Below are positions 42,411 through 64,000 of a stretch of 64,000 bases of DNA, piece after piece. This DNA comes from a virus. Where the stretch lies: positions 32,001 through 96,000 of IMG/VR virus record IMGVR_UViG_3300045988_072133. The stretch is one strand, 5' to 3'. Position 1 is the stretch's first letter. Every line of letters begins with the position of its first letter. The position numbers were made by a program, and so were the translations under genes. The notes beneath the pieces are model-generated. The model searched no databases, was not told the DNA's origin, and saw only the letters and a program-made list of their open reading frames with translations.

Positions 42411-42411
42411 T

Positions 42412-43351: not shown

Positions 43352-43460
43352 AACTTATTGTACTATAAGTTCTGTCAATGTTTCAAATTTCTTACCCTGG
43401 GTTAGCTGTGAAGCTTGTCCCAGGTTTTTAACCAGAAACTCTTTTTAACTTATATAAGTT

Positions 43461-43793
43461 ATGAAAATTTATCAAAAGACCAAATTCCACCAGAGTGGAA
43501 AGGTAGTAGTCTGTGTCATGACTGCTCACGTAAAGACCATGGGATTGAACTACAGCGCAGGTACTGTACGTGGTATTGCGCGATGTGCTCCTGAAGATCA
43601 ATTTGACCTTAAGAAAGGTCAGATGATTGCAGAGTCGAAGGCTACTCAGAAGATGTACAATCGCATCGGTGCGAACATGAACAAAGCTCTTAAGGTTACT
43701 GTCCAAGATCTCGATGAAATCAAGAGTGAACTTGCAAAACTTGCCAGCATGAAGGATGCCGAAGAGCGTCATTTCGATGAAATTTGTCACTGA
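43461..43793 (+). CDS. hypothetical protein
   Basis: 110-aa ORF, co-oriented with block; preferred over fully overlapping antisense ORF 43428-43811. Confidence 0.45.
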   Translation: MKIYQKTKFHQSGKVVVCVMTAHVKTMGLNYSAGTVRGIARCAPEDQFDLKKGQMIAESKATQKMYNRIGANMNKALKVTVQDLDEIKSELAKLASMKDAEERHFDEICH

Positions 43794-43858
43794 AAAATAA
43801 CTCTCGAACAATTCTAGTAATAACCACTCTTAGGACAGGAGTATAACTTGTCCTACCT

Positions 43859-43939
43859 GCGGGTGTGGTGAAATGGCAGCCACGCTAGACTTAGGATCTA
43901 GTGGAGAAATCCGTGGAGGTTCGAATCCTCTCACCCGCA
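43859..43939 (+). tRNA. trnL: tRNA-Leu (anticodon TAG)
   Basis: GCGGGTG/CACCCGC acceptor, anticodon stem CTAGA/TCTAG with loop CTTAGGA, 13-nt variable arm, T-loop TTCGAAT, discriminator A. Confidence 0.8.
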
Positions 43940-43961
43940 CTATTATTAACTAACACACAAG

Positions 43962-44213
43962 ATGCATTTATATGTAAGAATCATTCTACTCTGGATTATA
44001 CTCTGGGGTATCCCCTACATTAGCCTTAAAATCCAATGGAAATGTTACAAAGCTAGTGATGGACACATAATTTACAAATATTGGAAAGAAGATAAGGCTG
44101 CTTATGAGATATTTATAGCTATATTTAGTATAGGTTTAATACTTATAGGTTTAGCTGCATTCATGTTCTTCCTCCTATGGTTCTTTCCTGAATTTGAAGA
44201 GTTCGGCCAATAA
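43962..44213 (+). CDS. small membrane protein
   Basis: 83 aa, two TM helices. Confidence 0.45.
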   Translation: MHLYVRIILLWIILWGIPYISLKIQWKCYKASDGHIIYKYWKEDKAAYEIFIAIFSIGLILIGLAAFMFFLLWFFPEFEEFGQ

Positions 44214-44439
44214 TATAATTACCTACTTTCGAAGGTACTTACTAATTGAAAGGATTCTCCAGTAATGGGAGCGAATCCAGGTAGGTGTACATGGTATGAC
44301 CCGTTAATTAGAGTCTGATTCCACAGACGTTAAGTATTGTAGATTATATCAGAGAGAGAGTTCTTCTACTATAGATTACAGGTCTTGAGATATACCAGTT
44401 GGAAAATGCTGGAGTGGGTAATTTTTAATAGATCTAATT

Positions 44440-44709
44440 ATGAGAACTTGGTTTTGTAAAGATACACAAAGATGGGTATCAGAAATTCCGCGTGCCTTTT
44501 GGTTAGGAATATACGATTATAAAACTGGAGAGAAATTATATAGTGATGACACTATATACAGTGCTAACCCATTTTTGAGAAGTCTCAATAAAGATCTTTA
44601 CATAAAGGTGACTAATCTTCTAAATGACTATAGTAAGTCAGAATTTGGTAGAGGCAGATTTTACATGCCAAGACTCACTTTTCCTCCATATACTAAATAT
44701 AATAAATAG
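44440..44709 (+). CDS. hypothetical protein
   Basis: 89-aa ORF. Confidence 0.45.
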   Translation: MRTWFCKDTQRWVSEIPRAFWLGIYDYKTGEKLYSDDTIYSANPFLRSLNKDLYIKVTNLLNDYSKSEFGRGRFYMPRLTFPPYTKYNK

Positions 44710-44714
44710 AAATT

Positions 44715-45017
44715 ATGAAACTAAAAGGAATCGAAATCAAACCAGGAATGGTTATAATCACTAAGAGTGCAAGGTATGTTACATTCCCTACAGGGATGTC
44801 TGACTATCCTATAGCATTCGCTAACATCACAGCAGGAGAATAGACTTATAACATAACTGAGGCACTTGTAGAGAAGATCTATGATCTTATTACAGATTGG
44901 GTGTTAGATTCAGGTAAACTCCTATGGTCACAAAAATGGAACAGGGAGATCACTATGAGCGAGATTGCTGAGAAGTTCAGTATTCCTGTTGAACACTTAC
45001 GAATTAAAAAGGAATAA
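44715..45017 (+). other. 101-codon ORF interrupted by a single in-frame TAG at 44841-44843 (read-through candidate or fresh pseudogene)
   Basis: ATG 44715, 42 sense codons, TAG, then 58 more sense codons to TAA 45015. The downstream half has no usable ATG until 16 codons from its end and encodes an HTH-like segment (MSEIAEKFSIPVEHLRI). Confidence 0.4.
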
Positions 45018-45094
45018 ATCTCTCGCTCCTTCTAAATGGAGAGTGAATGCTGAAAGAAGACGTAAGTTGGGTAATTTTTAAACTAAACAGTTTT

Positions 45095-45214
45095 ATGAAA
45101 GTAGATTTTTCGAAAGTAAAGTATGACAATCCGTGTTTGTCATGCTCTCATACAGACATTATGTACTGTCACAACTGTATCCACTATCTGGGTAGGTACC
45201 GTAAAAAGGTCTAA
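45095..45214 (+). CDS. small Cys-rich (zinc-ribbon-like) peptide, 39 aa
   Basis: Hand-translated MKVDFSKVKYDNPCLSCSHTDIMYCHNCIHYLGRYRKKV; stop 3 nt before next gene ATG. Confidence 0.3.
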   Translation: MKVDFSKVKYDNPCLSCSHTDIMYCHNCIHYLGRYRKKV

Positions 45215-45217
45215 TCT

Positions 45218-45490
45218 ATGAGCAAATTATACGACGCACTTCAAGATCAGTTAAAGACTGAGCATAAGAAGGAAGCTGAAGATTGTATTAAAATATACAA
45301 TGTACTGAAAGCTATAAGTAGAGAAAAATATGGTGAGGAACATGTACGGTCTTCAGACTGGAATGTCCTAACTACTACTATGCTTGTTGGGAGTTATCCT
45401 AATGTAAGAAAGATGTACAAACCAAGCCCTATAGGAAAAGTATTTCTTATTGGAATATTATTCGATGAATCAGGAGAAATAAAGCTATGA
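45218..45490 (+). CDS. hypothetical protein
   Basis: 90-aa ORF. Confidence 0.45.
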   Translation: MSKLYDALQDQLKTEHKKEAEDCIKIYNVLKAISREKYGEEHVRSSDWNVLTTTMLVGSYPNVRKMYKPSPIGKVFLIGILFDESGEIKL

Positions 45491-45708
45491 AAATGCAAAA
45501 TACATATAAAGGATATTGGAGTATTGTTAAGGGCAAGACGCGGATTCTTGTACATCCTGGTCAGAGTAATCCTTACAAACCCCACATCCTTTATCTACAA
45601 CACAGATCCTCCTTGCAAGAGTAAAGTAGATTTCTACGAGATTAGGAAAGCTGTTAGATCTCTATATACAGAAGAATAACTTTTTGAATACTTTTATAGC
45701 ATTGCACA

Positions 45709-45933
45709 ATGAATCTGGAAACATACGCTAAAGCTACAGAGCTTTTAGAAGAGATTAAAGAGATAGAGCATATAGTACGCCTCTTAGAAACTGCAGAAAA
45801 TCACCGCCTCCTCTGTAATCCACGTGATAAATCAACTATACAAATATCAGTATCAGACAAACTTAGAGAAGCCTTAACTACACTGCTAACAGGTGAGAAG
45901 AAACAGCTTGAGAAAGAGTTTAAAGAATTGTAA
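45709..45933 (+). CDS. hypothetical coiled-coil protein
   Basis: 74-aa ORF. Confidence 0.4.
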   Translation: MNLETYAKATELLEEIKEIEHIVRLLETAENHRLLCNPRDKSTIQISVSDKLREALTTLLTGEKKQLEKEFKEL

Positions 45934-45954
45934 TTAAGTCAAAAAAATGTAAAC

Positions 45955-46191
45955 ATGTACTCAATTTATTACAAAGGAAAGGAATATGAAGTCTCAGAGA
46001 AGCTATTCCTTAATATATGTTTATGTATGCTTCAATTTGAGCAAGCGTCTATCATTGATAAGCCTGACCTTATCGAAGCTTTCCAAGAAAGATGTGTTCC
46101 TGAGATTCTTAAATCTCCTGATTTTGATTACTCAAGATTAGAAGATGAGAGTCTTGAAGGTGTAATTGATACAACCCCAATTTGCGAATGA
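45955..46191 (+). CDS. hypothetical protein
   Basis: 78-aa ORF. Confidence 0.4.
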   Translation: MYSIYYKGKEYEVSEKLFLNICLCMLQFEQASIIDKPDLIEAFQERCVPEILKSPDFDYSRLEDESLEGVIDTTPICE

Positions 46192-47186
46192 AAATCAAGT
46201 TCAATAACAACAAGAAATACTGGTATAAACCAGGGAAAATTTAATAGGCATAGAGTATGGTGCTCTACGCCCTATTATTCAACTCCAGAGTAAACAGGGA
46301 GTATAAATAAAGGTTGCCTCGGTAGATAGAGATTATCTATAATAGCTTTCAGGCTTAAGTAAAAGACCAAGTGAATCTTAGTGAGTAATGATTATTACAA
46401 AGCAGCTCAGCCAAAGCATTAAATGAGTAACGATGCTACCAGGTGAGTTAGGTGAAATTCCTACAACAGATGATGCTACGAATTGTAATGATATAACCTG
46501 GATCATTAAGTACTTGCCCAAATCGAGAGTCATATTTTTCATCTCCTCAATGACTTGGTAAGAGAGGAGATTTTTATTACTAAAGTAGTGAGCTTGGAGG
46601 TAGCTATCTTTAATGAGTAGATGAGTAGCAGTATGTGGTGAGGTATAAGTTTCACAGTTTACTCCTCAAATAAAAACTGTAGGTATACTTAAATAATGGT
46701 GAAAGACTAGACTCGAAGTCAGGAATCTGAAATATAAGAGTAAGTAGCTAGTGAAGTCAAGTTAAGAACCTGAAAAGCCGCAGCTGGATTCCCTACAATG
46801 AAGGTAAGTTAATGACTTACGGTACTATAACTAGCAATACTTATAGTACTTCTTTAGGTGTAACAACACGCTTTAGTAATATCTAGACTATAGGAGTTTG
46901 ATCGCTCCTATAGTCACCGTTTGCTTCAGAGGCTTAAGTCATACTAAGTAAATCTTGCCTGAATCTAATAAGCTGGAGTTCGAACCTATTCAATGACTTA
47001 GTAAAGAGAATAGGATTTTTATATAGTATATGAAAGAAATCAAAGAATATCAAGTGTTAGGAATAGGATTTTTAGCGATAGCTATTCTTGCAGGGTTAAT
47101 CCTAATTCTTATGTAGTTTTTATTTTAGGGCCTATAGTTAAAAGCTTTAAAAAGCTATTTCGTATTATTGTCAAATTAGATGTATA

Positions 47187-47528
47187 ATGGCTAAAGAGTA
47201 TACAGATCTTTGTGCATTTAAGAGATTCCTTAAATCTCACAAAATTTTTAATGAGTATAAGAAGGAACTAAGGAAACAGCATCCTCATGGATACTGGTCG
47301 AAAGAAATATCTGCACAAAGTAAAAAACATCCTACAGGGCTATATGATATCATCGGCTGTAGCCTAAATTGGATGAGCATTAGTGAATTCGAGGATCCTC
47401 CAAAAATCAATAGAGCGTGGAATAATTACTGGTTAGATCATTGTAGCATACGCTATTGGAAGAAATTCAGTAGCAGATTCCCTGACTATATGATACGAGA
47501 ATTACATAACAGAGGAAAAATAAGATGA
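47187..47528 (+). CDS. hypothetical protein
   Basis: 113-aa ORF. Confidence 0.45.
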   Translation: MAKEYTDLCAFKRFLKSHKIFNEYKKELRKQHPHGYWSKEISAQSKKHPTGLYDIIGCSLNWMSISEFEDPPKINRAWNNYWLDHCSIRYWKKFSSRFPDYMIRELHNRGKIR

Positions 47529-48037
47529 CATCATTTGCAAATCATTTAATCATTGCTACCTATATAGGTAAAAATGAACATACTTTTAAGGTAGGAAGTA
47601 GTTATCTATTGAGGGTAGAATTCAGAGGCACAGGAATGTATCCTATAAATGTCGTCTTAGACTATGCTCAACATTATACTTCTGTACCTTACAGGACTAT
47701 TATAGACTTTTTAAAAGAATGGACTGAGATAGTTACTGTCATAGATCCTAAACTCGTTGAAAAGAGCTCTAAAGTACTTTATATCGACGATTCTGGGGAC
47801 TCAGAGCTTCCTTTTGACCAGGAGGATGATGAAATCCTTAAAGACTATCGGAATCCTAAATCTAGCCTGCCTTCATTAGTTATGGATAAACCTTCCACAG
47901 ATCTTGTGAGAATTCATGGGAAAATAGTCCTATCTAATGGTGCATGGGTATGTGACAAATGCCGGCAGGTGAACTTCGATCCCTCAGCTGAAAGGTGCAA
48001 ATGCTGTGGTGGTAAAAGAATCTTATTCGATGAGTAG
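47525..48037 (+). CDS. hypothetical protein with C-terminal zinc ribbon
   Basis: 170 aa; WVCDKCRQVNF...CKCCGGK. Confidence 0.45.
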   Translation: MTSFANHLIIATYIGKNEHTFKVGSSYLLRVEFRGTGMYPINVVLDYAQHYTSVPYRTIIDFLKEWTEIVTVIDPKLVEKSSKVLYIDDSGDSELPFDQEDDEILKDYRNPKSSLPSLVMDKPSTDLVRIHGKIVLSNGAWVCDKCRQVNFDPSAERCKCCGGKRILFDE

Positions 48038-48542
48038 AGTATTCTTTGCAGCAGATATGCACTTCGGACATGATCGCTTAGCTATAAATAGAAGGAGAAT
48101 GGATCCTACATATCATAATGAACTTATCATTGACAATTGGAATAAGACTGTCAAAAAGAATGATCTTGTGATTATGGTAGGAGACCTAACCTTTGAAGCA
48201 CCTGAGCTTATTCCTATGTATCTATCGAAACTTCACGGAAATAAGCTTCTTGTAGCAGGTAATCACGATACAACACAATGCTGTGATGTAGTCCGCAGTT
48301 TAGGAATAAGAGTAGTAGGATGTATGAAGTATAAAGGATTTTTTGTATCCCACATACCTATTCATCCCCTGGAATTTTCATTCAGTCCTAAGGTTCGTGG
48401 AAATATACACGGCCATATTCATGATAGAGTTATCATGGATCCGAGATATTTTAATGTATCTATGGACAGAATAGATTTTACTCCGATACTCTTTGATGAT
48501 ATAGAACAAGCAATTATTTTAGCCAAATCAAACCTCATTTAA
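48006..48542 (+). CDS. calcineurin-like metallophosphoesterase
   Basis: FFAADMHFGH (D-x-H), VMVGDLT (GD), LVAGNHD (GNH[DE]) and GHIH motifs in canonical order; true start probably the MSRVFF Met at 48030. Confidence 0.6.
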   Translation: MVVKESYSMSRVFFAADMHFGHDRLAINRRRMDPTYHNELIIDNWNKTVKKNDLVIMVGDLTFEAPELIPMYLSKLHGNKLLVAGNHDTTQCCDVVRSLGIRVVGCMKYKGFFVSHIPIHPLEFSFSPKVRGNIHGHIHDRVIMDPRYFNVSMDRIDFTPILFDDIEQAIILAKSNLI

Positions 48543-48543
48543 A

Positions 48544-48912
48544 ATGTCAGAAATTTACTGGATTTCTCGATTAGACTACATTTGTAATCTATTCATTGCG
48601 CTCTCCATAATCTTTGGAACAATAGTAGCTGTAGGAGGATTTACTCTCGTAGTTTCGGATAGGTCAGATAATGACTATCCTACTATGCTCAAGATAGTAA
48701 AGAGATCAACCTTGATATTAGGATTTTCTTTACTTGGAGTTATATTTCTTCCTAACACAAAGCAAGCCTATATGATTTGGGGACTTGGAGGAACTATAGA
48801 TTATATCAAGAGTAACGAAACTGTTCAAAAACTGCCTGATAAAACTATCCAATGTTTGGATAAGTTTCTCGATAAATACCTCAACGAAGAAGATTCAACT
48901 CACAATCGATAG
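48544..48912 (+). CDS. membrane protein
   Basis: 122 aa, two TM helices. Confidence 0.45.
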   Translation: MSEIYWISRLDYICNLFIALSIIFGTIVAVGGFTLVVSDRSDNDYPTMLKIVKRSTLILGFSLLGVIFLPNTKQAYMIWGLGGTIDYIKSNETVQKLPDKTIQCLDKFLDKYLNEEDSTHNR

Positions 48913-48914
48913 TT

Positions 48915-49142
48915 ATGAGCCTCATAGGTAAAATCTTTAAGCTCCCTGCAAATCGTCAGAGAGCTCATGATGAGTACTTTAAAGTAGAACGTGAGAACTT
49001 TGGTATTCTCGTATGCACAATGTTAGTTCCTGACAGACCTCATCACAAGATAACTAATCTTGTATGTGATCCTTCAGAACTTCAGAATGCAGAAGAAATC
49101 ACTACTAAGGAGTACTTAGAAGCTATGGAGAAGACTGCATAG
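48915..49142 (+). CDS. hypothetical protein
   Basis: 75-aa ORF. Confidence 0.4.
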   Translation: MSLIGKIFKLPANRQRAHDEYFKVERENFGILVCTMLVPDRPHHKITNLVCDPSELQNAEEITTKEYLEAMEKTA

Positions 49143-49148
49143 TCAGGA

Positions 49149-49219
49149 TGCGGTGTAGTGTAACGGTAACACACATCACTTTGGATGATGTATTTCAGGT
49201 TCAAATCCTGACATCGCAA
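49149..49219 (+). tRNA. trnQ: tRNA-Gln (anticodon TTG)
   Basis: TGCGGTG/CATCGCA acceptor (one G-U), D-stem GTGT/ACAC, anticodon stem CATCA/TGATG with loop CTTTGGA, T-arm TCAGG-TTCAAAT-CCTGA, discriminator A. Confidence 0.7.
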
Positions 49220-49246
49220 CAATTATTAACTAATAATAATATTATT

Positions 49247-49591
49247 ATGAAGTACAAGAAATGGACTGAAAAACGCTGTATTGAGATTATTAAAGTAATG
49301 AATCAATTTCCTGATAATCTTACTGCAGGATTTGAAGAATGTGCTAAAAAGTTTGGAGGAACTCCTCTCTATTATAACACATCGTGGTACAAAAGTGGGC
49401 ATGCCCTCTGTAAATTACGCAAGAAAATGAATAGCCTCGTTTGTACAACTCTGTCGACTACGAGCCCGAACTACAAGAATTCTCCCAGAGTTAATGGAAA
49501 ATTTCGCTCCGAGAGAGCTGAACGAATAGTGCCCACTACAGCAGAATTCTTCAAAGGATGGATATCTAGCTGTACTAAAGTCTTTCAGTAA
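49247..49591 (+). CDS. hypothetical protein
   Basis: Internal ATG (MKYKKWTEKR...) of track ORF 49148-49591, whose 5' part overlaps tRNA-Gln. Confidence 0.45.
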   Translation: MKYKKWTEKRCIEIIKVMNQFPDNLTAGFEECAKKFGGTPLYYNTSWYKSGHALCKLRKKMNSLVCTTLSTTSPNYKNSPRVNGKFRSERAERIVPTTAEFFKGWISSCTKVFQ

Positions 49592-49781
49592 TGATACCTA
49601 AAAAGATTCTTGTAGACCTTACTGAGTATGAATTAACAATACTCATTTGGTGTTTAGAAGAGTGTGGAAGGGCTTATACTGAAAGTGCAGATACCTTACA
49701 GACAAAGCTAAGAAATCTTCGCAGTGTTGTTCAGACACAACCTAACTTAGAGGAATAGCAATACTCTTAACATTTATAATT

Positions 49782-50198
49782 ATGGCAATTACACGCAAAA
49801 TTGGAGAGGTCTTTACGATAACAGACCCTTACTATCCATACAACACAGTATGCCTCAAAGTAAAATTGGGGAGTAGGTGTGATGAATGCTTCTTTTATAA
49901 ACATTCTCTTTATAATACTTGTAATAAACCTCTCAAAGGAACAGGCTTCTGTAGTGCATCCTGTAGATCTGATAACAGAGAAGCTATATTTGTACAAGTT
50001 GCAAATAGTGTACCTGAGGATAAGACAACTATATCACAACCGAGCTGTGTCTTTTGTAGAGAAGTAAAGGAACTGAAGTATGATCTAAGTCGAGGTATTT
50101 CAACAATCTGCTCAGTACAAGGTCACCTTCCTGACGAGTTTACTATTCATCGACGATATTACTTCAAATATTGTCCAATATGCGGTAAAAAACTGTAA
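49782..50198 (+). CDS. Cys-rich protein, RKIGEVF-family paralogue 2
   Basis: MAITRKIGEVFTITDP... plus many Cys (CDECFFYKH, CSASC, CVFC, CPIC). Confidence 0.5.
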   Translation: MAITRKIGEVFTITDPYYPYNTVCLKVKLGSRCDECFFYKHSLYNTCNKPLKGTGFCSASCRSDNREAIFVQVANSVPEDKTTISQPSCVFCREVKELKYDLSRGISTICSVQGHLPDEFTIHRRYYFKYCPICGKKL

Positions 50199-50200
50199 CT

Positions 50201-50809
50201 ATGTCACTATCTATAGTAGAAAGAAAAATTGGGGAAGCATTCACATGTAAAGTACGCGGAACCCCTAAAAAAATAGTAGTTTACCCAGCTACTAAAGAAG
50301 GTGGTTGTGAAGGCTGTATTTTCCGAGGGCACGAGCCTAATCTTCAATGTACCATCTTAGAATATGATACAGGACCTTGTGATGCAGATCAGCGAGTAGA
50401 TCATAAGAATGTCATCTTCAAAGAACTGATTCCTGATCAGTTTGAACTCATGAGGACTATAATTTGCAGGTTAGCCTTAGAGTGGTGTTTAACTCAAATT
50501 AGTAGAAGACAATTCTACCAAGGGGTGTATATAGTGACTAAGAATCTATATCCTATGGAGATGAATATTATTCGAAATTCACCTGCAAATATCCTCAGGA
50601 ATAAGAATAATCTCACTCCTTTCTGGAATAAATTACGTGAATTAATTCAAAAGAAAATGAAGCCTATTACTGTCAAGGACATGATTGAGTATCTGGGGAC
50701 ATTAGCTCCAGATTACGAGCTCCATTGCTTCAACGATGGAGAGCCTATCAGAGTTAAAGACTCTACTACTGACCACGAGAAGAAGATCGTGGAGCTCCAG
50801 TTTGAATAG
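50201..50809 (+). CDS. Cys-rich protein, RKIGEVF-family paralogue 3
   Basis: MSLSIVERKIGEAFTCKV...CEGCIF. Confidence 0.5.
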   Translation: MSLSIVERKIGEAFTCKVRGTPKKIVVYPATKEGGCEGCIFRGHEPNLQCTILEYDTGPCDADQRVDHKNVIFKELIPDQFELMRTIICRLALEWCLTQISRRQFYQGVYIVTKNLYPMEMNIIRNSPANILRNKNNLTPFWNKLRELIQKKMKPITVKDMIEYLGTLAPDYELHCFNDGEPIRVKDSTTDHEKKIVELQFE

Positions 50810-50817
50810 GTAAAGGT

Positions 50818-50889
50818 GCTAGTGTAGCTTAATGGCAGAGCAGCTGATTTGTAATCAGCAGGTTGGGGGTTCGAGTCCCTTCACTAGCT
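50818..50889 (+). tRNA. trnT: tRNA-Thr (anticodon TGT)
   Basis: GCTAGTG/CACTAGC acceptor, T8 A9, anticodon stem GCTGA/TCAGC with loop TTTGTAA, T-loop TTCGAGT, discriminator T. Confidence 0.7.
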
Positions 50890-50903
50890 CTTCAAATCAC
50901 CAT

Positions 50904-55360: not shown

Positions 55361-56264
55361 GAAAGAACTCGTATTGATGGCTATTGCTGCAGGTAAGCCT
55401 GTTGCTGAAGGTAATGCATTTCCTGTGTACACTGGTGTGGTACCGATGAAAATTATTGCTATTAACCCTAACAAGAAGGAGTTGGAAGCAATCTATGGAA
55501 GACCCTTTGAGAACGATCCTGAGTATCTCGGTGTAGATCCTCGAACTGGTATTAAGCGTCTTCGTATAGATTTCATTGGTAAAACTATTCCTGAGAAATG
55601 TAATGGTATCGAGATGACTACTCGTATCACTACGTGGGTAAGTGATGCTGTTCAGTATAATGCTGACAAGTCTAAGGTTAAGGTAATTAATCCGTATGGA
55701 CAAACAACATGGCTCACTAAGGAAGAATTCAAGGAGAAGCGTTTACCTGATAATGTGCCTGCATCCATGTTCCTAATGGAGGACCCCCGCCCGTGTCTCA
55801 TAGGTGAGGAAAGACTTATGCGAATAGTGCAAGCCTCAGTAAATATTCCCAGAGTTGTAGCAGATTTTGCTACTGGGGAGCTTATCAAGAATAAAGCCGA
55901 TGCTAGCTGTAGATTTGATACCCTCAAAGATATGATAGGCAAAGGAAACCTTGTTGAGCTGAAGAGTATTATTCCGGCTATGAAGCTTTTCAAGATGGGT
56001 GCTGGAGCCAGAACTACGGATGATAATCGTGTCTATCAGGACTGGTTCATAGACTATCCTATGAAGGGAGGATCTAATGACATGAAGTATTATGATGCTG
56101 CCCTAAAGAAAGCTAAAGCCAATGGTGCTTATCCCAACACAGACTTTGGTGATATGCCTTATGAAGTTCAAGAATACGTAGTTAAACCTACGAACTTGAG
56201 AGCTGCAGTAGCAGAAGTACCTGTAGCAGTAGGTATGGATGATGACTTAGAAGCTGACTGGTAA
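55347..56264 (+). CDS. hypothetical protein (replication module)
   Basis: 305-aa ORF between ATPase and primase-like genes. Confidence 0.45.
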   Translation: MTMNKKELVLMAIAAGKPVAEGNAFPVYTGVVPMKIIAINPNKKELEAIYGRPFENDPEYLGVDPRTGIKRLRIDFIGKTIPEKCNGIEMTTRITTWVSDAVQYNADKSKVKVINPYGQTTWLTKEEFKEKRLPDNVPASMFLMEDPRPCLIGEERLMRIVQASVNIPRVVADFATGELIKNKADASCRFDTLKDMIGKGNLVELKSIIPAMKLFKMGAGARTTDDNRVYQDWFIDYPMKGGSNDMKYYDAALKKAKANGAYPNTDFGDMPYEVQEYVVKPTNLRAAVAEVPVAVGMDDDLEADW

Positions 56265-57301
56265 TGGCTATAGCGAGAGGGAAAGTAGTTGATGTTAAAG
56301 AAGAGGTCTTTTCGAAAGTCTCTGAAAGCGATATCCTATATTTCTATCTCGGAATAACACATTTGCCAATAGTAATTTGTAGCCCTTTGAGGAAGGATAC
56401 TAATCCTTCCTTGGGGTTACATTACAACAAAAGTGGTCATATAGTATATAAGGATTTTGCTACTGGGGAAGGAGGATCTTTGTATACTCTCCTTATGAAA
56501 ATACTTAATTTATCATTTGGAGAGCTTATGGAGAATATCTATTTAAACCTCGTAGAATCGACTAACTGCACTACTAGTACTCCTATATTACAATATGATA
56601 GAAAGAGTACTAAATCGGCTAAAAAGCCCTCTGTCGTGGATATTCAGGTTGCCCTTAGACCTTGGAAGTCTTGGGACAGAGAATACTGGAGTTCTTATGG
56701 TATAACCAAAGAATTTCTTAAGTTCGGAAAAGTTTTTCCCGTAAGTCACATCTTCCTAATACGAGAAGATGAGTCCTGTACTTCTGTACCAGCAGAAAAA
56801 CATGCTTATGTATACATTGAAGAGAAAGATAACAAGATTTCTCTGAAAGTTTATCAGCCATTTAGTAAAGACTATAAGTGGATAAATAAGCATACTTCTG
56901 ATGTGTGGGATTTATGGCAACAGTTACCACTGACTGGAGATTACCTTATTATTACTAGCTCCCGAAAAGATGCTTTGTGTATATGGTGTAATACAGGAAT
57001 TCCTGCCTGTAGTCTTCAAGCAGAATCATATCTCCCTAAAGAAAGTGTTATCAATGAGTTAAAAGGTAGGTTCAAGAATATCTTTATACTCTATGATAAT
57101 GATTTCAGTAAACCTGTGAATCATGGTAGGGAATATGGTAAAACTCTTGCTAGTACCTTCGGATTACCACAGATTGAGCTGCCTGAAGAACTTGGTGCTA
57201 AAGATAGCTCTGATCTATATCAGTTACATGGTAGAGAAGTTTTAAGGGACACAATATTTAAATTAACTGGTTATGAACAAGATCAAACTTGCCCGTTTTG
57301 A
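56264..57301 (+). CDS. primase-like protein (degenerate Toprim)
   Basis: YLIITSSRKDALCIW and FILYDNDFSKPVNHG resemble Toprim E/DxD blocks (acidic E replaced); weak. Confidence 0.3.
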   Translation: MAIARGKVVDVKEEVFSKVSESDILYFYLGITHLPIVICSPLRKDTNPSLGLHYNKSGHIVYKDFATGEGGSLYTLLMKILNLSFGELMENIYLNLVESTNCTTSTPILQYDRKSTKSAKKPSVVDIQVALRPWKSWDREYWSSYGITKEFLKFGKVFPVSHIFLIREDESCTSVPAEKHAYVYIEEKDNKISLKVYQPFSKDYKWINKHTSDVWDLWQQLPLTGDYLIITSSRKDALCIWCNTGIPACSLQAESYLPKESVINELKGRFKNIFILYDNDFSKPVNHGREYGKTLASTFGLPQIELPEELGAKDSSDLYQLHGREVLRDTIFKLTGYEQDQTCPF

Positions 57302-57515
57302 TGATCCGAAGTGGACATATAAGCAATTGTGTAAGTATGCTCTCAAGTATAGGAAAATGCTTGCTAGCAAGGCGATTTCTTATCGTAACAAAGATAAACT
57401 CGCAGAAGCAATAGAGGTAAATTATGTGTATGAAACTCTTTACCGGTACAATTCAATTCCCCGGTATTTACTCATTAAGAGATTAAAAGAAGCTCAAAAG
57501 TTGTTGTACAAATAA
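57273..57515 (+). CDS. hypothetical protein
   Basis: 80-aa ORF. Confidence 0.4.
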   Translation: MNKIKLARFDDPKWTYKQLCKYALKYRKMLASKAISYRNKDKLAEAIEVNYVYETLYRYNSIPRYLLIKRLKEAQKLLYK

Positions 57516-57537: not shown

Positions 57538-58296
57538 ATGTTCTATCTAAAAATTCGTTCTAAAAATCACACTGCGAATGGTCTTCGTAGAGTGATCAGG
57601 AGTACTAAAAGAGCCCTTCTGAGGCTTGGAAGCACAACTCCTACAGCGGTAGTTTTCCCGTATTTACGCCCAGGAACTGAGGTCCTTGAGCTGAACTCTG
57701 TAGACGCATGTAAAATCTCAGGTAACAAAACTTTGATGAAGCAAGCTTTTGATGAAGCACAAGTTACCTCCTCTGAATGGGGCCCTGTAAATGAAGAATG
57801 GGATAAATTCCCTGCGATCATTAAACATAACCATTCAAGTAAAGGGAATGGTATCTACTACATCAAAGATCAAGAAGCTCTACGAGATTGGTTAGGATCT
57901 CATAATCCTGCTAATCACATCATAGAGAAGTATTACACGTACAACCGTGAATACCGACTTCATGTAACTAAGGATGGGTATTTCTATACCTGTCGGAAGA
58001 TGCTTCGGAGAGATGCAGAAGAACGTTGGCATCGTCATGATAATAACAGTGTATGGATTGTCGAGGAAAATCCTCAATTCGATAAACCTACTAACTGGGA
58101 TGCTATCGTAGCAGAATGTGTCAAAGCCCTCAACGCTGTAGGATTAGATATTGCTGCTATTGATGTCAAAGTTCAATCTGCTGATAAAGGTCAGGATCCT
58201 AAGTTTATCATCCTGGAAACAAACAGTGCACCCTCGTTGGGTGAAAGAACCACAGAAGAATATATCAACAAGTTAACACAAATCGTAAATGCCTAA
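57538..58296 (+). CDS. ATP-grasp ligase, RimK/glutathione-synthetase-like
   Basis: DKFPAIIKHNHSSKGNGIYYI (K..GS.G.G ATP-binding loop) and C-terminal FIILETNSAPSL (ATP-grasp Mg-binding E-x-N motif). Confidence 0.65.
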   Translation: MFYLKIRSKNHTANGLRRVIRSTKRALLRLGSTTPTAVVFPYLRPGTEVLELNSVDACKISGNKTLMKQAFDEAQVTSSEWGPVNEEWDKFPAIIKHNHSSKGNGIYYIKDQEALRDWLGSHNPANHIIEKYYTYNREYRLHVTKDGYFYTCRKMLRRDAEERWHRHDNNSVWIVEENPQFDKPTNWDAIVAECVKALNAVGLDIAAIDVKVQSADKGQDPKFIILETNSAPSLGERTTEEYINKLTQIVNA

Positions 58297-59272
58297 TACT
58301 ATTCTTACAGGTACTGCTCTCTGCTGTGAGGCAGCAATTTCGGTGAAAGTGCTTAAGGGAGATGGGAGCAAATCCCCTTCGTATAACTACGAGCTACACA
58401 ATAAGCCTTGCTTTGGAATATATTTTAACAGTGCTCCCAATAGCAATGGTCGAACTAAGACTTTAGTGGATATCAAAGCAGATGTCTATCAATATATTGA
58501 TCAAGACATGTTAGTTAAAAATCATGAAAATAACTACTGTTCTCTGGCTCCTGATCAACTGCATAAGTACCACCGAGAGCTCGAATTTGTGTTCGCTAAG
58601 TATTCTTCTAAAGAAGATACGGGAGTAAAACTTTCTGTAGAGGAGACTACAAGGTTGTATGATATGGATCGATGCAAGGACGGAGTTCTTTGTCCTGCTA
58701 TTAAGATCCATGTAGAAGCTAAGAAGATGAGTGCATATCAGTTTCTGTGTCTTCTTACTCTCATCAGATGTTCTTCTGAATATCCGAATGCTCTACTACT
58801 CAAAGAATGTTTTAACCTTCAAGAGAAAGGGTATTTCAGGGAGTTCTCTATCATGAGTCTCTTTGCTCTGCTGCAAAATCGTCTGCAATATTCTTACGAC
58901 CAAGGACCTATACAGTGGGTAGAGGATAGCAGACACTATTTCTACAAACCCTCGTGTCTAGAATTCCTTCAGAAGAGAATAATGTGTAATTCTGCAGCTT
59001 ATGTAGATACAAACTACAAGGTTCAGAATTTCTATGAAGTAGTTGAAAGAGGTCCTAGGAATAAGAGCAAATTTGTTTTGCCCAAATACACAATGGGCGG
59101 AGGTGATGCGACTGGTAAAGAAAAGCTCTTTGATACGAATGCAATCATCACAACTATCTTTGATGGAGACGTTCCAGAAGATCATGTAGAATGTTTTAAG
59201 AATATTCTAGCAGCTATCAAAGGCCAGTTTCCTAAACTGAAAGTGGACTATCCTCAAGAGTTAAAATCTTAG
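58289..59272 (+). CDS. hypothetical protein within amide-ligase cluster
   Basis: 327-aa ORF, Cys-rich, no recognised motif. Confidence 0.5.
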   Translation: MPNTILTGTALCCEAAISVKVLKGDGSKSPSYNYELHNKPCFGIYFNSAPNSNGRTKTLVDIKADVYQYIDQDMLVKNHENNYCSLAPDQLHKYHRELEFVFAKYSSKEDTGVKLSVEETTRLYDMDRCKDGVLCPAIKIHVEAKKMSAYQFLCLLTLIRCSSEYPNALLLKECFNLQEKGYFREFSIMSLFALLQNRLQYSYDQGPIQWVEDSRHYFYKPSCLEFLQKRIMCNSAAYVDTNYKVQNFYEVVERGPRNKSKFVLPKYTMGGGDATGKEKLFDTNAIITTIFDGDVPEDHVECFKNILAAIKGQFPKLKVDYPQELKS

Positions 59273-59275
59273 TAT

Positions 59276-60247
59276 ATGACCTTAGAAGAAATCCAAAGGC
59301 TTAATGTAGGATTACTGAATTTGAGGGCAAATTATTCTGTAGTTCTAGTAAAGGATAACAAACTATGTCGTAGAACCTTTAAGAATAGCGATGCTTGCTT
59401 CTCAAGTTCGTGGGCCTATATAAAAAACTCAAACTCTCCCAAAGAGTATGATAAGGTTAGAATACGCATTAGTGCTTGTACGGATGCTAATATTAATATA
59501 TTATTTGAGCAGGATAACCTAGTGTGCCTTAAGGAAGTTCAAGTTATAGAGTGGCTAGATCACCTGTGTGAAATATTTAGTAAATATAGTTTAACGTATA
59601 AAATTATACCAGCTACTATATATACAGGCTATGAGTATCATACAGGTGATGCTCTTAAAGGGATACACATAGTAGTTAAAGCTCAAAATATTCCAGGATT
59701 CTATGTCAAATGGATAATGAGCTATGTCAGACTAATATATGAAAGTTCGACTTCGCTAGTGTTAAGAGAAACTTTTACTCTGCGAAATCTTATTCCAGAG
59801 TTAAAATATCTCCCACTTCTATCAGCATTCATGTTTGTGAATACAACAGGAAGGGATACTCATGCGTTTACTGCAATGGTAACACGAACAGCTATGCAGC
59901 CCAAAACATGCATATTTACTCCCAGAACGTTGAAGAGTATCCAAAAAGTAGTAAATGCACATAACTTTCCTGATCCTACTGTATACATAGATAAATGGCA
60001 TGAGGAAGTATTTCTTCCTAGAAGCGTCTCTTATGAATCCGCTGAAAACCTAAGCTTTAGGGAAATGGCAAATAAGATATGGTACACTATATCACATACT
60101 GATGCACCTAAAACGAATGAGCTAGGACACTTTAGATTCAACGAGCCAATATATGTCAGAAAGTATGTATTTCAGGATAAGATTCCTGAATCTATTGTAG
60201 ATCTCTACAAAGCAATGTACAAAAAAATTTGTCCTTACATCAATTAG
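59276..60247 (+). CDS. hypothetical protein within amide-ligase cluster
   Basis: 323-aa ORF. Confidence 0.5.
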   Translation: MTLEEIQRLNVGLLNLRANYSVVLVKDNKLCRRTFKNSDACFSSSWAYIKNSNSPKEYDKVRIRISACTDANINILFEQDNLVCLKEVQVIEWLDHLCEIFSKYSLTYKIIPATIYTGYEYHTGDALKGIHIVVKAQNIPGFYVKWIMSYVRLIYESSTSLVLRETFTLRNLIPELKYLPLLSAFMFVNTTGRDTHAFTAMVTRTAMQPKTCIFTPRTLKSIQKVVNAHNFPDPTVYIDKWHEEVFLPRSVSYESAENLSFREMANKIWYTISHTDAPKTNELGHFRFNEPIYVRKYVFQDKIPESIVDLYKAMYKKICPYIN

Positions 60248-60251
60248 TTAC

Positions 60252-60884
60252 ATGAGAAAACCTATCAAAGTTTATGTTGTTGGCCATGATTGGTGCAACA
60301 TCACAAGCTTTTTATTGTTTGACTTCGAGAAAGTTGATAATATTAAAGAAGCTGATATCGTAATGTTTACGGGAGGAGAGGATATTAATCCTGCCCTTTA
60401 TGGAGATGTTCCTCACCCCACAACTCATTTCTCGAACAGAGATGACATGGAGGTATTAGCTTTCAAAGATGCTCCTAAAGAAGCCCTGCTTATTGGAGGC
60501 TGTAGAGGTGCTCAACTTTTAACAGCCCTCAGTGGTGGTAAGCTTTTCCAGCACGTTACTGGCCATAGTGGAAGTACTGGAGTTCATAATATTACAGCAT
60601 CTGATAATCGCACAGTGAGGATTACCTCCTGTCATCATCAGATGATGAATCCCTATGATCTTCCTGAAGAAGACTATGAGCTGCTAGCCTGGTCTACTGT
60701 AAACCTGAGCTCAGCATATTGTATCGGAGCAGGTCCGGTAGAAGTTCCGCAAAACTTCAAAGAACCTGAGATTGTCTATTATCCTAAGACACGTGCTTTA
60801 TGCATTCAAGGACATCCCGAATGGATGCCTAAGGATCAACCTGTAATTGCATATATTAACGAACTTATTGAAAAGTATCTGTAA
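60252..60884 (+). CDS. class-I glutamine amidotransferase-fold peptidase C26 (gamma-glutamyl hydrolase, PuuD-like)
   Basis: FTGGEDINPALYG (C26 signature GG.D..P..YG), nucleophile elbow IGGCRGAQ, catalytic CIQGHPE. Confidence 0.75.
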   Translation: MRKPIKVYVVGHDWCNITSFLLFDFEKVDNIKEADIVMFTGGEDINPALYGDVPHPTTHFSNRDDMEVLAFKDAPKEALLIGGCRGAQLLTALSGGKLFQHVTGHSGSTGVHNITASDNRTVRITSCHHQMMNPYDLPEEDYELLAWSTVNLSSAYCIGAGPVEVPQNFKEPEIVYYPKTRALCIQGHPEWMPKDQPVIAYINELIEKYL

Positions 60885-61687
60885 TGAAAATTAAAGAATT
60901 TTTAATCGGCTCAGATCCTGAGCTGTTCATCGTAGACAAATCTAAGGATAATAAGATTATCTCTTCCATTGGGTTGATTCCCGGTGTTAAGGGACATGCC
61001 TACAAACCTGCAGAGCTTCCTGAAGGATTTGGCCTGCAGATTGACAATATCCTCGCGGAGTTTAATATTCCTCCTACGTGTTATAAGGAGGATTTTATAG
61101 CTCACATGATGGTCATGAAAGACTATATTCGAGACTATGTGAAATCTAAGAATCCGAATTATGATATCTGTTGCAAAGCATCTGCTTTAGTAGATGAGGA
61201 TCAACTCCAGAGTGATGAGGCAAAATTGTTTGGATGTTCACCAGATTACAATGCATGGCTGGGAGAGCAGAACCCTCGTCCCCAGGGAGATACTACAAAT
61301 TTAAGAACGACGGGTTGTCATTTCCATATCGGATATGAGGGTCATGATCGTGACACTTCAATGGAATTAGTTCGCATTCTGGATTTGTTCCTTGGAGTGC
61401 CTTCAATTCTCATCGATGAGGATGATCGAAGACGACAGCTTTATGGTAAGGCAGGATGTTTCCGATTCACTTCGTATGGTGTAGAATATCGAGTTATGTC
61501 CGGATACTTCATCAACTCCCCCAGGCTTATTGGATGGTGCTTTGATCAGATCCTGGCAGCTATTGAATTCCTGAACAACGGAGATTCAGTAGATGAAGAT
61601 GCTGCAGATATTGTGGATGCTATTAACAATAACAACCGCAAAGCTGCAGAAGATTTAATTAAGAAGTATAAAATTAATTTAGTCTAA
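60884..61687 (+). CDS. COOH-NH2 ligase (glutamine-synthetase-fold, GCS2/phage type-2 amidoligase-like)
   Basis: N-terminal IGSDPELFIVD acidic metal-binding strand, HFHIGY and RFTSYGVEYRV blocks resembling carboxylate-amine ligase family; gene start overlaps upstream stop. Confidence 0.45.
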   Translation: MKIKEFLIGSDPELFIVDKSKDNKIISSIGLIPGVKGHAYKPAELPEGFGLQIDNILAEFNIPPTCYKEDFIAHMMVMKDYIRDYVKSKNPNYDICCKASALVDEDQLQSDEAKLFGCSPDYNAWLGEQNPRPQGDTTNLRTTGCHFHIGYEGHDRDTSMELVRILDLFLGVPSILIDEDDRRRQLYGKAGCFRFTSYGVEYRVMSGYFINSPRLIGWCFDQILAAIEFLNNGDSVDEDAADIVDAINNNNRKAAEDLIKKYKINLV

Positions 61688-61692
61688 GAATA

Positions 61693-63183
61693 ATGTGTGG
61701 AATATTTGGATTTGCTGGTAAACTCGGCAATCACGAATTTAATATTCTTAAGTTCTCTATACTTGGAGCAATTAACGATAGCAGAGGGGGTGATTCTGCA
61801 GGAGCGTTTATTGATGGTAAATGTGAATGGGGTATCAGCGATGAGAAACTCTTTGCTAATTTTGCTACCAAGAATAAGTTTCTAAAGGGTTACAGAGGAG
61901 TATCAGTACAACACGCACTTGGTCATTGTAGGAAAGCATCTGTGGGAGCTAAAACCATCAAGGAAGCTCAGCCTGTATGTATTCCTAATGATGAGGATTC
62001 GAAGATCGACTTCGCAATGATTCATAATGGTACTCTTTTGAATCATAACGAACTGAAGAATAAGTATCTCGCAAAGGTGCCTGATCATTTTACTGACTCC
62101 CAAATATTCGCCAATGTGGTTTACTATCATGGCTTCAAAGTATTAGAGGAGTATGATGGTGCAGGAGCTTTTGCATTCGTAGATTACAGGAAGAAAATTC
62201 CTACATTCTACTTATTCAAGGGAGAGAGTCCTCAGTACAGAAGTAGTGTTACTTCATCTGAGGAACGTCCTCTTTTCTGGGTTAAGACTCCTGAAGGAAT
62301 ATGGTTTTCTTCAATTAAGGAATCTCTTGAACTCATAACCTACGGAGATTATGACATTGAAAGTGTTCCTGGGAATACCCTTATCATTATCCAGAACGGT
62401 CGTGTTATATCTACAAGAAAGTATGATCGTAGTGGCCGATTTCAGGTCAGTTATGGCTCGAAATACTATGCTAAAGACTACGATAGGGAAGACTACTATG
62501 GATATGGGTCATATGGCTACAAGAACACATCGGCGGGGGCGACGACTCCGAAGAAGAACGAAGAGGAGCCGTGGTTCAAGGTAGGAGATACTAAAACTTT
62601 CGAAGCTACAAGTATTGTAGCAGGTGAAGCAGAGGCCCGCTATGATTATGTCAATAGCAATAAGGTTATCTTCAAACCTGATGGACGTTATTATAAGGGC
62701 AAAGTCCTTATGAGTGGTCCCTACAGAATTTCAGAATACGGCTTCGAGAATACCTACTCGAATCTCGGAACTGATGTTGTAGCACGTCCCAAGACATTCT
62801 ATTTCTTCCAGGGCTTCCTGATGAAAGATGCTCTTTGCATGCATATAGCACGCAGAATCTATGAAATGGCTGGGGACAAGTTTAAGGATACTATGCTTCG
62901 GAAGTTAACTATGGGATGTTTCTATGATCCTGAGTTAAAGAAGTTCTACACTCGGAAAGGTAAGTTATTTACAGGAACTTATCCTGTATATTTCACTCTT
63001 ACCAATCGGGTATACAAGATTCAGCGTGGAGAGATTTATCAATACACAGAGTCTTATAATCCGAATTCCTGTAGTGTATGGAAAACGTACTGTCCACAGT
63101 ATGAGGGTCCGGAGGTTCCGGTAAAGTTCGCTAACTTGATTGAAAAGTCAGCTAAGAAGATCATGTCTATTTACAACGTTTAA
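61693..63183 (+). CDS. Ntn-hydrolase class-II glutamine amidotransferase domain protein
   Basis: N-terminal MCGIFGF (Cys2 nucleophile directly after Met) and RGGDSAGAF (R-G-x-D-x-x-G) as in PurF/GlmS/AsnB GATase-II domains; 496 aa with Gly/Tyr-rich linker and non-GATase C-terminal half. Confidence 0.7.
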   Translation: MCGIFGFAGKLGNHEFNILKFSILGAINDSRGGDSAGAFIDGKCEWGISDEKLFANFATKNKFLKGYRGVSVQHALGHCRKASVGAKTIKEAQPVCIPNDEDSKIDFAMIHNGTLLNHNELKNKYLAKVPDHFTDSQIFANVVYYHGFKVLEEYDGAGAFAFVDYRKKIPTFYLFKGESPQYRSSVTSSEERPLFWVKTPEGIWFSSIKESLELITYGDYDIESVPGNTLIIIQNGRVISTRKYDRSGRFQVSYGSKYYAKDYDREDYYGYGSYGYKNTSAGATTPKKNEEEPWFKVGDTKTFEATSIVAGEAEARYDYVNSNKVIFKPDGRYYKGKVLMSGPYRISEYGFENTYSNLGTDVVARPKTFYFFQGFLMKDALCMHIARRIYEMAGDKFKDTMLRKLTMGCFYDPELKKFYTRKGKLFTGTYPVYFTLTNRVYKIQRGEIYQYTESYNPNSCSVWKTYCPQYEGPEVPVKFANLIEKSAKKIMSIYNV

Positions 63184-63191
63184 CATTAGTA

Positions 63192-64000
63192 ATGTTACAG
63201 AGAACAACTCGTATTACAACGGCTTCAGGTAAAAGAGTTCTGAAGTCGAACTGTTGCACCATCAATGGTGAGTACTACATCAAAGAAGAGGAAGCTGTTA
63301 AGATCGGAACATCATGGTATCTGAAGCAGGATCCGAGAATCTTCTATGATTATGGCTCACGATCCTGGAGGAAGACTCGTGGTGTTAACATCTGCAAGGG
63401 AGTTGTAGGATGGGATTCATCAAATACTCGTCCTATAATTGGAGCTTTTGAAGTAGACCACACTCGCAACATTGATGTTGCTAAGCTAGATTCCTGTGGT
63501 AATATTCAAAATATGGTTACGTATATGGATCGGTCTCTTCTCCAAGGGCTGGTCCATTATAACAAAAACCTGGGAATCTACGAAGACACTACTGCACTCA
63601 GTCCTATCCTTAAGAAGGTAGAAGGTGTTTTAGCTAACACTATAGGACAGGGTGTATACAACTATTCTTTTAATCAGGAGTATTCTTCAAGTAAACACAT
63701 GGAGAAGTTCCTCAAATATCCCCGCGATATGAGAATTGATAACCCTATCAATATCCCTGATGTAAAAGAATTTGGAGAGTTCTCCTTTGGTCTAGAGTTC
63801 GAAACTGCTGCTGGAAAGTTGAGCCAAGCACAATGTTTTAACTTAGGACTTATTCCTCTGCGAGATGGTTCTATCTCAGGTATTGAGTATACTACTATAC
63901 CTATGAAAGGACCTGAGGGATTTAATCTCTTAATCAATCAGGTGAAGACTCTACAAAAGAGTACTACCTTTGATAAGGATTGTTCCCTTCACGTACATTT
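63192..64000 (+). CDS. hypothetical protein, partial (continues beyond window)
   Basis: ATG 9 nt after upstream stop; open to window end (MLQRTTRITTASGK...). Confidence 0.45.
   Translation, partial: MLQRTTRITTASGKRVLKSNCCTINGEYYIKEEEAVKIGTSWYLKQDPRIFYDYGSRSWRKTRGVNICKGVVGWDSSNTRPIIGAFEVDHTRNIDVAKLDSCGNIQNMVTYMDRSLLQGLVHYNKNLGIYEDTTALSPILKKVEGVLANTIGQGVYNYSFNQEYSSSKHMEKFLKYPRDMRIDNPINIPDVKEFGEFSFGLEFETAAGKLSQAQCFNLGLIPLRDGSISGIEYTTIPMKGPEGFNLLINQVKTLQKSTTFDKDCSLHVH

Follow-up and report, generated by a model that had tools for sequence, protein, structure and literature searches.

We analyzed a 64,000-nucleotide (nt) stretch of viral DNA (positions 32,001 to 96,000 of IMG/VR record IMGVR_UViG_3300045988_072133; hereafter the window), in which a cassette of genes for amide-bond enzymes runs from position 57538 to the end. 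Sequence comparison identifies the window as part of a Crassvirales genome, with the uncultured phage cr108_1 (Crassvirales, Steigviridae, Asinivirinae) as its closest relative. The window region is 76% identical to cr108_1 at the nucleotide level, the same genes are annotated there, and the class-II glutamine amidotransferase (GAT-II) of the window is identical to protein DAK96527.1 of a Crassvirales metagenome-assembled genome. The cassette comprises the following predicted genes.

57538..58296, + strand: RimK/R2K-like ATP-grasp carboxylate-amine ligase, 252 amino acids (aa), from PHROG 2599 and motifs
58289..59272, + strand: unkA, member of a new protein family, 327 aa, from the family profile
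59276..60247, + strand: unkB, paralog of unkA, 323 aa, from hhalign
60252..60884, + strand: Peptidase C26/class-I glutamine amidotransferase-type gamma-glutamyl hydrolase, 210 aa, from Pfam, PHROG 7218, and the catalytic triad
60884..61687, + strand: phiEco32-type COOH-NH2 ligase, GCS2-like, 267 aa, from PF14395 and PHROG 3815
61693..63183, + strand: class-II (N-terminal nucleophile, Ntn) glutamine amidotransferase, GAT-II, with a C-terminal domain, from GATase_6
63192..64000, + strand: predicted Amidoligase_2 ligase, glutamine synthetase (GS)-like, cut by the window end (269 of ~486 aa), from its cr108_1 ortholog

The first six genes lie on the + strand exactly where the initial annotation had placed them, as consecutive, co-oriented, and partly overlapping open reading frames (ORFs), and the seventh frame continues past the window end. 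Because successive genes overlap or sit -8 to +8 nt apart (-8, +3, +4, -1, +5, and +8 nt), the seven presumably form one transcription unit. Judged by its protein families, this is the crAss-type version of an amidoligase cassette that is widespread in phages. Cassettes of this type have been described before, and most of the finding is a rediscovery; the new elements are the unkA/unkB family, its tie to the C26 and COOH-NH2 ligase genes, and the swap of the cassette for another one at the slot between the primase and uracil-DNA glycosylase (UDG) genes.

Profile searches bore out the initial family calls (ATP-grasp, peptidase C26, GCS2-like COOH-NH2 ligase, and GATase-II), for the ATP-grasp protein through PHROG 2599, which is named after RimK (2.5e-30). 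Its Pfam matches all fall below the cut-off (RimK, 0.0023, 18 bits versus 21; TTL, 0.0051; R2K_2, 0.015), as do those in NCBIfam, where it matches the RimK family (1.3e-5), cyanophycin synthetase, and MptN, and reaches 24.7 bits against the cut-off of 143.4 for TIGR00768, the RimK family alpha-L-glutamate ligase. By similarity, its nearest families (RimK, TTL, R2K_2, and cyanophycin synthetase) are amino-acid-adding enzymes. All motifs noted initially were found in the translations (ILETNSAPSL, FTGGEDINPALYG, GGCRGAQ, QGHPE, GSDPELF, MCGIFGF, and RGGDSAG), with the qualification that the ATP-grasp loop given as K..GS.G.G is not a literal match and reads K96-HNHSSKGNG, which is equivalent. The ATP-grasp motif residues are K96, S100-G105 (SSKGNG), E130, D209, and E227-x-N229 (ILETNSAPS); here and below, roles are assigned to catalytic and motif residues by general knowledge of the families.

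The C26 protein matches Pfam Peptidase_C26 (1e-12, 48.7 bits versus a cut-off of 20.5) and PHROG 7218 (5.7e-33), and its triad of C84 (GGCRGAQ), H188, and E190 (QGHPE) is intact by inspection. The COOH-NH2 ligase matches PF14395 (1.2e-9, 38.3 bits versus 25) and, over its full length, PHROG 3815 (9.4e-71), with the motifs D11-P-E13, E59-x-N61, H146-x-H148, and E201-x-R203. In GAT-II, which matches GATase_6 (5.7e-12, 46.2 bits versus 27), a linker of low complexity joins the Ntn domain (residues 1 to ~250) to a C-terminal domain of ~210 aa. Its M-C2-GIFG, R31GGD34, H111NG113, and D135SQ correspond to the Cys2, R-G-x-D, H-N-G, and D-S-x motifs that form the glutamine site in PurF and GlmS. We looked in GAT-II for a recognizable synthase (acceptor) domain of the PRTase, SIS, or AsnB type and found none. 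A structural search with the C-terminal domain gave no match; this domain is common to the crAss-type proteins and unlike the Cys-rich tails of the phiEco32 and phiIBB-PAA2 proteins.

The partial frame at 63192, initially regarded as a candidate substrate or carrier component, is better read as an enzyme. It is 73% identical to the 486-aa cr108_1 protein gp_22626, which matches PF12224 (2.9e-6, 27.8 bits versus 22); the fragment itself matches PHROG 2443, "amidoligase enzyme" (0.003), carries the motifs FGLEFET, GIEYTT, and CSLHVH, and has a lineage-specific N-terminal domain. We count three predicted ligases in the cassette, not two, because the ortholog of this truncated gene matches Amidoligase_2 above threshold. 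The acidic, H-x-H, and E-x-R motifs are intact by inspection in both GS/GCS-like ligases. Sequence searches of the PDB returned no solved relative for the ATP-grasp protein, the COOH-NH2 ligase, or Amidoligase_2.

Four metagenomic contigs and cr108_1 have their cassette genes in this same order although the enzymes are as little as 32-57% identical, which argues against a chance arrangement and for the initial view that the genes are syntenic rather than scattered in relatives. Synteny is retained in cr108_1, in loci L007-L011, and in Cellulophaga phage phi14:2, with sequences diverged to 23-57% identity. Relative to cr108_1, the window enzymes are 75-83% identical, compared with 32% for unkB. 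Protein identities to the window in four of these loci are as follows.

ATP-grasp: cr108_1 81%, L009 76%, L011 57%, L008 n/a
unkA: cr108_1 55%, L009 39%, L011 28%, L008 23%
unkB: cr108_1 32%, L009 26%, L011 n/a, L008 n/a
C26: cr108_1 78%, L009 73%, L011 62%, L008 43%
COOH-NH2 ligase: cr108_1 83%, L009 77%, L011 61%, L008 54%

That these are independently acquired auxiliary genes of no common pathway, neighbors by coincidence, is barely credible and largely refuted by the synteny. Composition does vary by lineage, with gamma-glutamylcyclotransferase (GGCT) present or absent, one or two unk genes, and C26 doubled in L008, but the core of COOH-NH2 ligase, Amidoligase_2, GAT-II, and ATP-grasp genes keeps together in phage groups that are not related to each other, with identities of 25-40%, and the start and stop codons of cassette genes overlap. 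Family assignments and synteny together support the initial proposal of one cassette for amide-bond chemistry with a gamma-glutamyl flavor. The two C26 genes of L008 lie at L008:466-1107 and L008:1939-2562; the second, 41% identical to the first, has Asn for the catalytic Cys (GLNRGAN) and Asn for the His (QGNPE), and is probably a catalytically dead paralog.

By sequence comparison, unkA and unkB are paralogs of one family. The two align colinearly in BLASTP (E-value 1e-3), window unkA matches cr108_1 unkB at 1.6e-8, and hhalign of the two family alignments gives a probability of 97.3% (E-value 1.9e-11). Only 98 proteins of the family emerged when 1.84 billion representative proteins were searched with its profile, and no Pfam domain was found in any of the ten distant members checked. 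To judge from these searches, unkA and unkB define a previously undescribed protein family. Its distant members of ~270 aa with usable context adjoin Peptidase_C26 and COOH-NH2 ligase genes (L007 and L008), and the longer of these two contigs additionally has GAT-II, Amidoligase_2, and UDG genes near the unk member. Longer relatives sit in complete crAss-type cassettes (L009-L011). One or two copies are found per cassette. Each genomic context examined for the family proved to be a crAss-type cassette with C26 as the neighbor, and in all seven of the crAss-type contexts seen the unk genes are obligate companions of the C26 and COOH-NH2 ligase genes.

In an alignment of 114 sequences, R160 and E164 (unkA numbering) never vary, and conservation reaches 98% for C41 and 95% for F42 and N82. 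This pattern of a fixed Arg and Glu with a nearly fixed Cys and Asn suggests a functional site and resembles an active or binding site more than a passive carrier. The initial annotation had listed the two 320-aa proteins as candidate substrate or carrier components. The AlphaFold2 model of unkA is confident (predicted local distance difference test score, 85.6; predicted template modeling [TM] score, 0.89) and depicts a mixed alpha/beta sheet protein, whose good matches in a Foldseek search of BFVD were crAss-like proteins only, again paired in one genome. A carboxylate-amine ligase fold of the Pup-ligase/GCL type was weighed as one possible fold for unkA and unkB. Compared with the enzymes encoded on either side, the unk proteins show two- to threefold faster divergence, which would suit a subunit in contact with a variable partner.

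Several candidate links for unkA and unkB were rejected. Homology to phiEco32 gp87/gp88, phiIBB-PAA2 orf18/19, O4 gp59, or phiM6 gp80 was negative throughout by hmmsearch and hhalign, and a link between unkA and a 319-aa PaP4 protein (Foldseek E-value 0.011, TM score 0.28) was too weak to be used. A role as acidic-tailed acceptors of the RimK type was also discarded, as acidic tails are absent from all 114 members, most of which end in lysine-rich sequence. As a separate observation, L008:3-473 encodes the C-terminal part of another unk-family protein (hidden Markov model [HMM] E-value 1.7e-5) that ends in a poly-Asp/Glu stretch (...DDYGDGDWDDDDDEYDDDDE), a tail that has no counterpart among the 114 members examined.

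Beyond the crAss-type phages, tblastn with the COOH-NH2 ligase found matches in 315 of 50,697 phage records, and clusters of the window's own proteins held up to 240 member sequences. The core of COOH-NH2 ligase, Amidoligase_2, class-II GATase, and RimK-like ATP-grasp genes is clustered in phages phiEco32, phiIBB-PAA2, O4, phi14:2, and phiM6, and in phiEco32, LUZ24-like phiIBB-PAA2, Pseudomonas O4, and Cellulophaga phi14:2 it adjoins a primase or primase-helicase gene. GAT-II and Amidoligase_2 genes are adjacent in the crAss-type loci, phiEco32, and phiIBB-PAA2, and this pair occurs alone in OM43 phages (PMC10580990). The set has been described as a seven-gene "peptidoglycan modification cassette" or a peptide-bond synthesis module (PMC5498523, PMC6256558, PMC10580990), and PMC5498523, PMC6256558, PMC10580990, and PMC11945000 trace the hypothesis back to two papers, Iyer et al. 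2009 and Hardies et al. 2013. These reports agree with the initial statement that comparable phage neighborhoods had been noted without a determined product; in 2025, the function was still termed "putative" (PMC11945000).

The window cassette shares the same four core families with phiEco32, LUZ24-like phages (PaP3, tf, and phiIBB-PAA2), PA11/O4, RIO-1/PSA-HP1, CW02, and phiM6. Within this group of phages, the PF14395 ligases are 31-37% identical to that of the window, and the genes are likewise clustered and co-oriented among early/middle replication genes beside the primase. In contrast to this group, the window lacks the ~200-aa protein that follows the COOH-NH2 ligase and has unkA and unkB instead, a family undetectable in those phages by HMM or hhalign; the host phylum of the window phage, Bacteroidota, also differs. 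In phage phi14:2 (Crassvirales, Asinivirinae), the cassette likewise lies between the primase and UDG genes, with an ATP-grasp protein 40%, a COOH-NH2 ligase 35%, a GAT-II 30%, and an Amidoligase_2 with a long N-terminal domain 27% identical to the window proteins; unlike the window, phi14:2 has GGCT and lacks both C26 and the unkA/unkB family. GGCT is annotated in phiEco32, phiIBB-PAA2, phi14:2, and Sinorhizobium phiM6, with O4 as the exception. A tblastn search with three phage GGCTs for GGCT/AIG2 found none in the 64-kb window (best E-value 0.13) or in L007-L011. C26 as a strict nonorthologous replacement of GGCT was rejected as a rule, since phiM6 carries both; it holds only within the Crassvirales loci seen.

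In two Asinivirinae phages, crAss001 (Gp79-Gp75, L014:7023-12245) and cr111_1 (L015:9068-13614), which represent sister genera of the subfamily, the primase-UDG slot holds a different five-gene cassette. It contains a ThiF/E1-like gene (PF00899, 8e-16), a gene for a Prok-JAB-like metalloprotease (4.9e-4, below the cut-off), and three genes for hypothetical proteins. Like the amidoligase cassette, it combines a carboxylate-activating enzyme, a hydrolase, and lineage-specific unknown proteins; unlike it, it would act by adenylation rather than acyl-phosphate formation, and the proteins are not homologous. As far as these assignments go, two nonhomologous carboxylate-activating cassettes alternate at one locus within Asinivirinae. 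Because crAss001 and cr111_1 hold this unrelated ThiF/JAB cassette there, the slot takes interchangeable accessory cassettes, which weakens the DNA-directed role that the initial annotation had drawn from the position of the genes after the replication genes.

Such a role would consist of DNA or nucleotide hypermodification, with the ligases attaching an amino-acid-type group to a base or nucleotide and thereby protecting the DNA from restriction. The cassette abuts a primase or primase-helicase gene in crAss-type phages, phi14:2, phiEco32, phiIBB-PAA2, and O4; amidoligase and amidotransferase Pfam genes stand beside 5-HMUDK/aGPT-Pplase2 in viral contigs (Lee et al., PMC8989533); and cassette-bearing Gordonclarkvirinae show unexplained restriction-modification resistance (PMC11990801). 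We nonetheless regard hypermodification as very improbable, and DNA as an unlikely acceptor in general. Profile searches found no kinase, glycosylase-like, transglycosylase, or DNA-binding domain in any cassette protein, and no Pfam match to the P-loop 5-hmU DNA kinase or the aGPT-Pplase paralogs of thymidine hypermodification. The unkA model is an alpha/beta sheet protein, not the helix-hairpin-helix of aGPT-Pplases (PMC8989533). DNA of cassette-carrying LUZ24-like phages is readily cut, that of U17 by 11 of 16 restriction enzymes (PMC11945000) and that of phage tf by RsaI, HpaI, EcoRV, SmaI, and HaeIII, with which it was also cloned (PMC3517423). The exchange with the ThiF/JAB cassette in the crAss slot also speaks against a DNA-directed function.

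The reading that we favor, with a probability of roughly 0.55, is that the crAss-type cassette carries out the cytoplasmic, ATP-dependent assembly, glutamine-dependent amidation, and trimming of a gamma-glutamyl or peptide adduct. During phage replication, the three ligases would activate carboxylates as acyl-phosphates in the cytoplasm and join them to amines, or add glutamate-type residues stepwise, to build a short gamma-glutamyl or peptide adduct. GAT-II would take ammonia from glutamine and feed it to Amidoligase_2, so that a carboxylate becomes a carboxamide. Removal or editing of the terminal gamma-glutamyl group would fall to the C26 enzyme; elsewhere among phages, GGCT is encoded, alone or together with C26. 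unkA and unkB may serve as lineage-specific catalytic or acceptor-recognition subunits.

As acceptor, a protein or peptide is slightly favored, if tentatively, because the ATP-grasp protein is nearest to RimK/TTL/R2K, its companions evolve fast, and the slot is swapped with an E1/JAB cassette. The ThiF(E1)/JAB system pairs carboxylate activation with a hydrolase, a combination that typifies the conjugation of proteins or peptides. RimK (ribosomal protein S6 glutamylation), TTL, and R2K are the best-scoring families for the window ATP-grasp protein, although it scores below all of their curated cut-offs; R2K.2 members occur in phages and are predicted to modify proteins (PMC4431377). It is a matter of speculation, with which the comparison is compatible, that the amidoligase and ThiF/JAB cassettes have analogous conjugation functions. 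In a more specific and rather doubtful form, the cassette would install a novel covalent modification, a gamma-glutamyl or short-peptide tag, possibly amidated, on a specific host or phage macromolecule selected by unkA and unkB as a new enzyme or adaptor family, with ThiF/JAB doing the equivalent job. If this were so, gut phages, phiEco32, and LUZ24 would share an uncharacterized ubiquitin- or pupylation-like tagging layer of infection.

The nearest solved relatives of the C26 protein would also fit a small-molecule substrate. Enzymes of the C26 and GGCT types normally have small gamma-glutamyl compounds as their substrates. In PDB sequence searches, the window protein matches Lin1909 (1.4e-5) and then 7d4r, a "probable glutamine amidotransferase" of Pseudomonas that we take to be the polyamine-pathway enzyme SpuA; its nearest NCBIfam model is gamma-glutamyl-CDP-amidate hydrolase (5.7e-4). 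The bacterial PuuA/PuuD and PauA/SpuA systems, the type to which these nearest solved relatives of the C26 protein belong, use an ATP-dependent GS-fold ligase to make a gamma-glutamyl amide that a C26 hydrolase removes. On this model, an amine or cofactor (a polyamine as in Puu/Pau, or a folate-type polyglutamate tail) would be glutamylated and de-glutamylated to tune the pools on which DNA synthesis or packaging draws. MptN, a ligase that acts on a cofactor, is among the RimK-family relatives, and the cassette stands among nucleotide-metabolism genes, with ribonucleotide reductase (RNR), dUTPase, and thymidylate synthase genes downstream in cr108_1. However, the similarities are all at the superfamily level and far under curated cut-offs, the phage ligases are not PuuA-type glutamine synthetases, and two further ligases and GAT-II have no counterpart in those pathways. 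Three different ligases and two amidohydrolases would be heavy machinery for one metabolite, and a universal small substrate does not predict rapidly diverging companions. We consider such metabolism, and a small gamma-glutamyl amine or cofactor as acceptor, rather unlikely.

Peptidoglycan-precursor remodeling, the reading that the four papers cited above attribute to Iyer 2009 and Hardies 2013, would have the ligases make unusual stem-peptide linkages (gamma-glutamyl or D-Ala-D-Ala-like) and the amidotransferases and hydrolases amidate or trim them, so that an altered wall excludes superinfecting phages or is readied for lysis. Peptidoglycan occurs in every host range seen (Bacteroidota, Enterobacteria, Pseudomonas, Vibrio, and Rhizobia), the phiEco32 ATP-grasp protein has a weak Dala_Dala_lig_C match (0.005), and the cassette proteins all appear cytoplasmic, which is where stem peptides are assembled. 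The idea is nevertheless purely inferential. Profile searches found no Mur-ligase, peptidoglycan-binding, or transpeptidase domain in the cassette, which is located in the replication module, away from the endolysin gene, and neither the fast evolution of unkA and unkB nor the ThiF/JAB swap is explained. A peptidoglycan precursor seems a rather unlikely acceptor, and remodeling of the wall a rather unlikely purpose; as acceptors, such a precursor and a small amine or cofactor rank level, next after a protein or peptide.

Several observations weigh against the favored assembly, amidation, and trimming of a gamma-glutamyl or peptide adduct. The ATP-grasp protein stays under every curated threshold of Pfam and NCBIfam, and no S6-like, acidic-tailed acceptor or candidate tag protein was identified. 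The fast evolution of unkA and unkB could simply reflect low constraint. Co-transcription is deduced from gene spacing only, as a scan for promoters and terminators gave counts at shuffle level with a consensus that does not model Bacteroidota promoters. In the searchable literature, we found no experimental product, substrate, or phenotype of any cassette member, and the four papers (PMC5498523, PMC6256558, PMC10580990, and PMC11945000) only restate the hypothesis.

Among the carriers of the cassette are phages of E. coli and Pseudomonas that serve as models or as candidates for therapy, as well as podophages from the sea and crAss-like lineages from the human gut, which spend seven genes and ATP on a chemistry first reported more than 15 years ago. 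Knowing what the cassette makes, a question accessible to experiment, would account for a function that is common in infection, and novel specificities of ligases would probably come to light. On its own, the window leaves the present picture as it was. The crAss-type loci add three handles: a new conserved family linked with the C26 and COOH-NH2 ligase genes, four residues of that family that are candidates for a function (two invariant and two near-invariant), and a locus at which a ThiF/JAB system naturally replaces the cassette.

Directly upstream of the cassette is the DnaG-type primase gene (56264-57301), itself preceded by genes for a helicase and a Sak4-like ATPase. One further small ORF lies between primase and cassette, and its membership in the cassette is uncertain.

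57273..57515, + strand: 80-aa ORF that overlaps the 3' end of the primase gene, immediately before the cassette

This ORF is kept in cr108_1 (56% identity) and L009 (49%) and absent in L011; it matched no family. Elsewhere in the window, seven tRNA genes (Asn, Met, Ser, Arg, Leu, Gln, and Thr) are scattered over positions 31661-50890, and the GC skew changes sign near 37-38 kb, at the switch between two transcription orientations. Six short pieces within 44314-47149 are 95% identical to a cr111_1 hypothetical protein gene, compared with ~76-81% identity to cr108_1 for the rest of the window, and may reflect recent exchange between crAss-like lineages.

In L010, three called genes (L010:4954-6240, 10001-11011, and 13262-14743) have an in-frame TGA 7-14 codons before the called end, probably because the gene caller used an alternative code and over-extended them; the window's own genes need no recoding. 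Downstream of the cassette, the orthologous loci carry genes for UDG, two nucleases (a DUF1064 protein and an exonuclease), RNR, dUTPase, PolA, and thymidylate synthase. The RNR genes are split by NUMOD4 and LAGLIDADG homing-endonuclease genes in L009 (L009:18684-20990) and L010 (L010:18010-20882), and the cr108_1 RNR annotation is likewise split.

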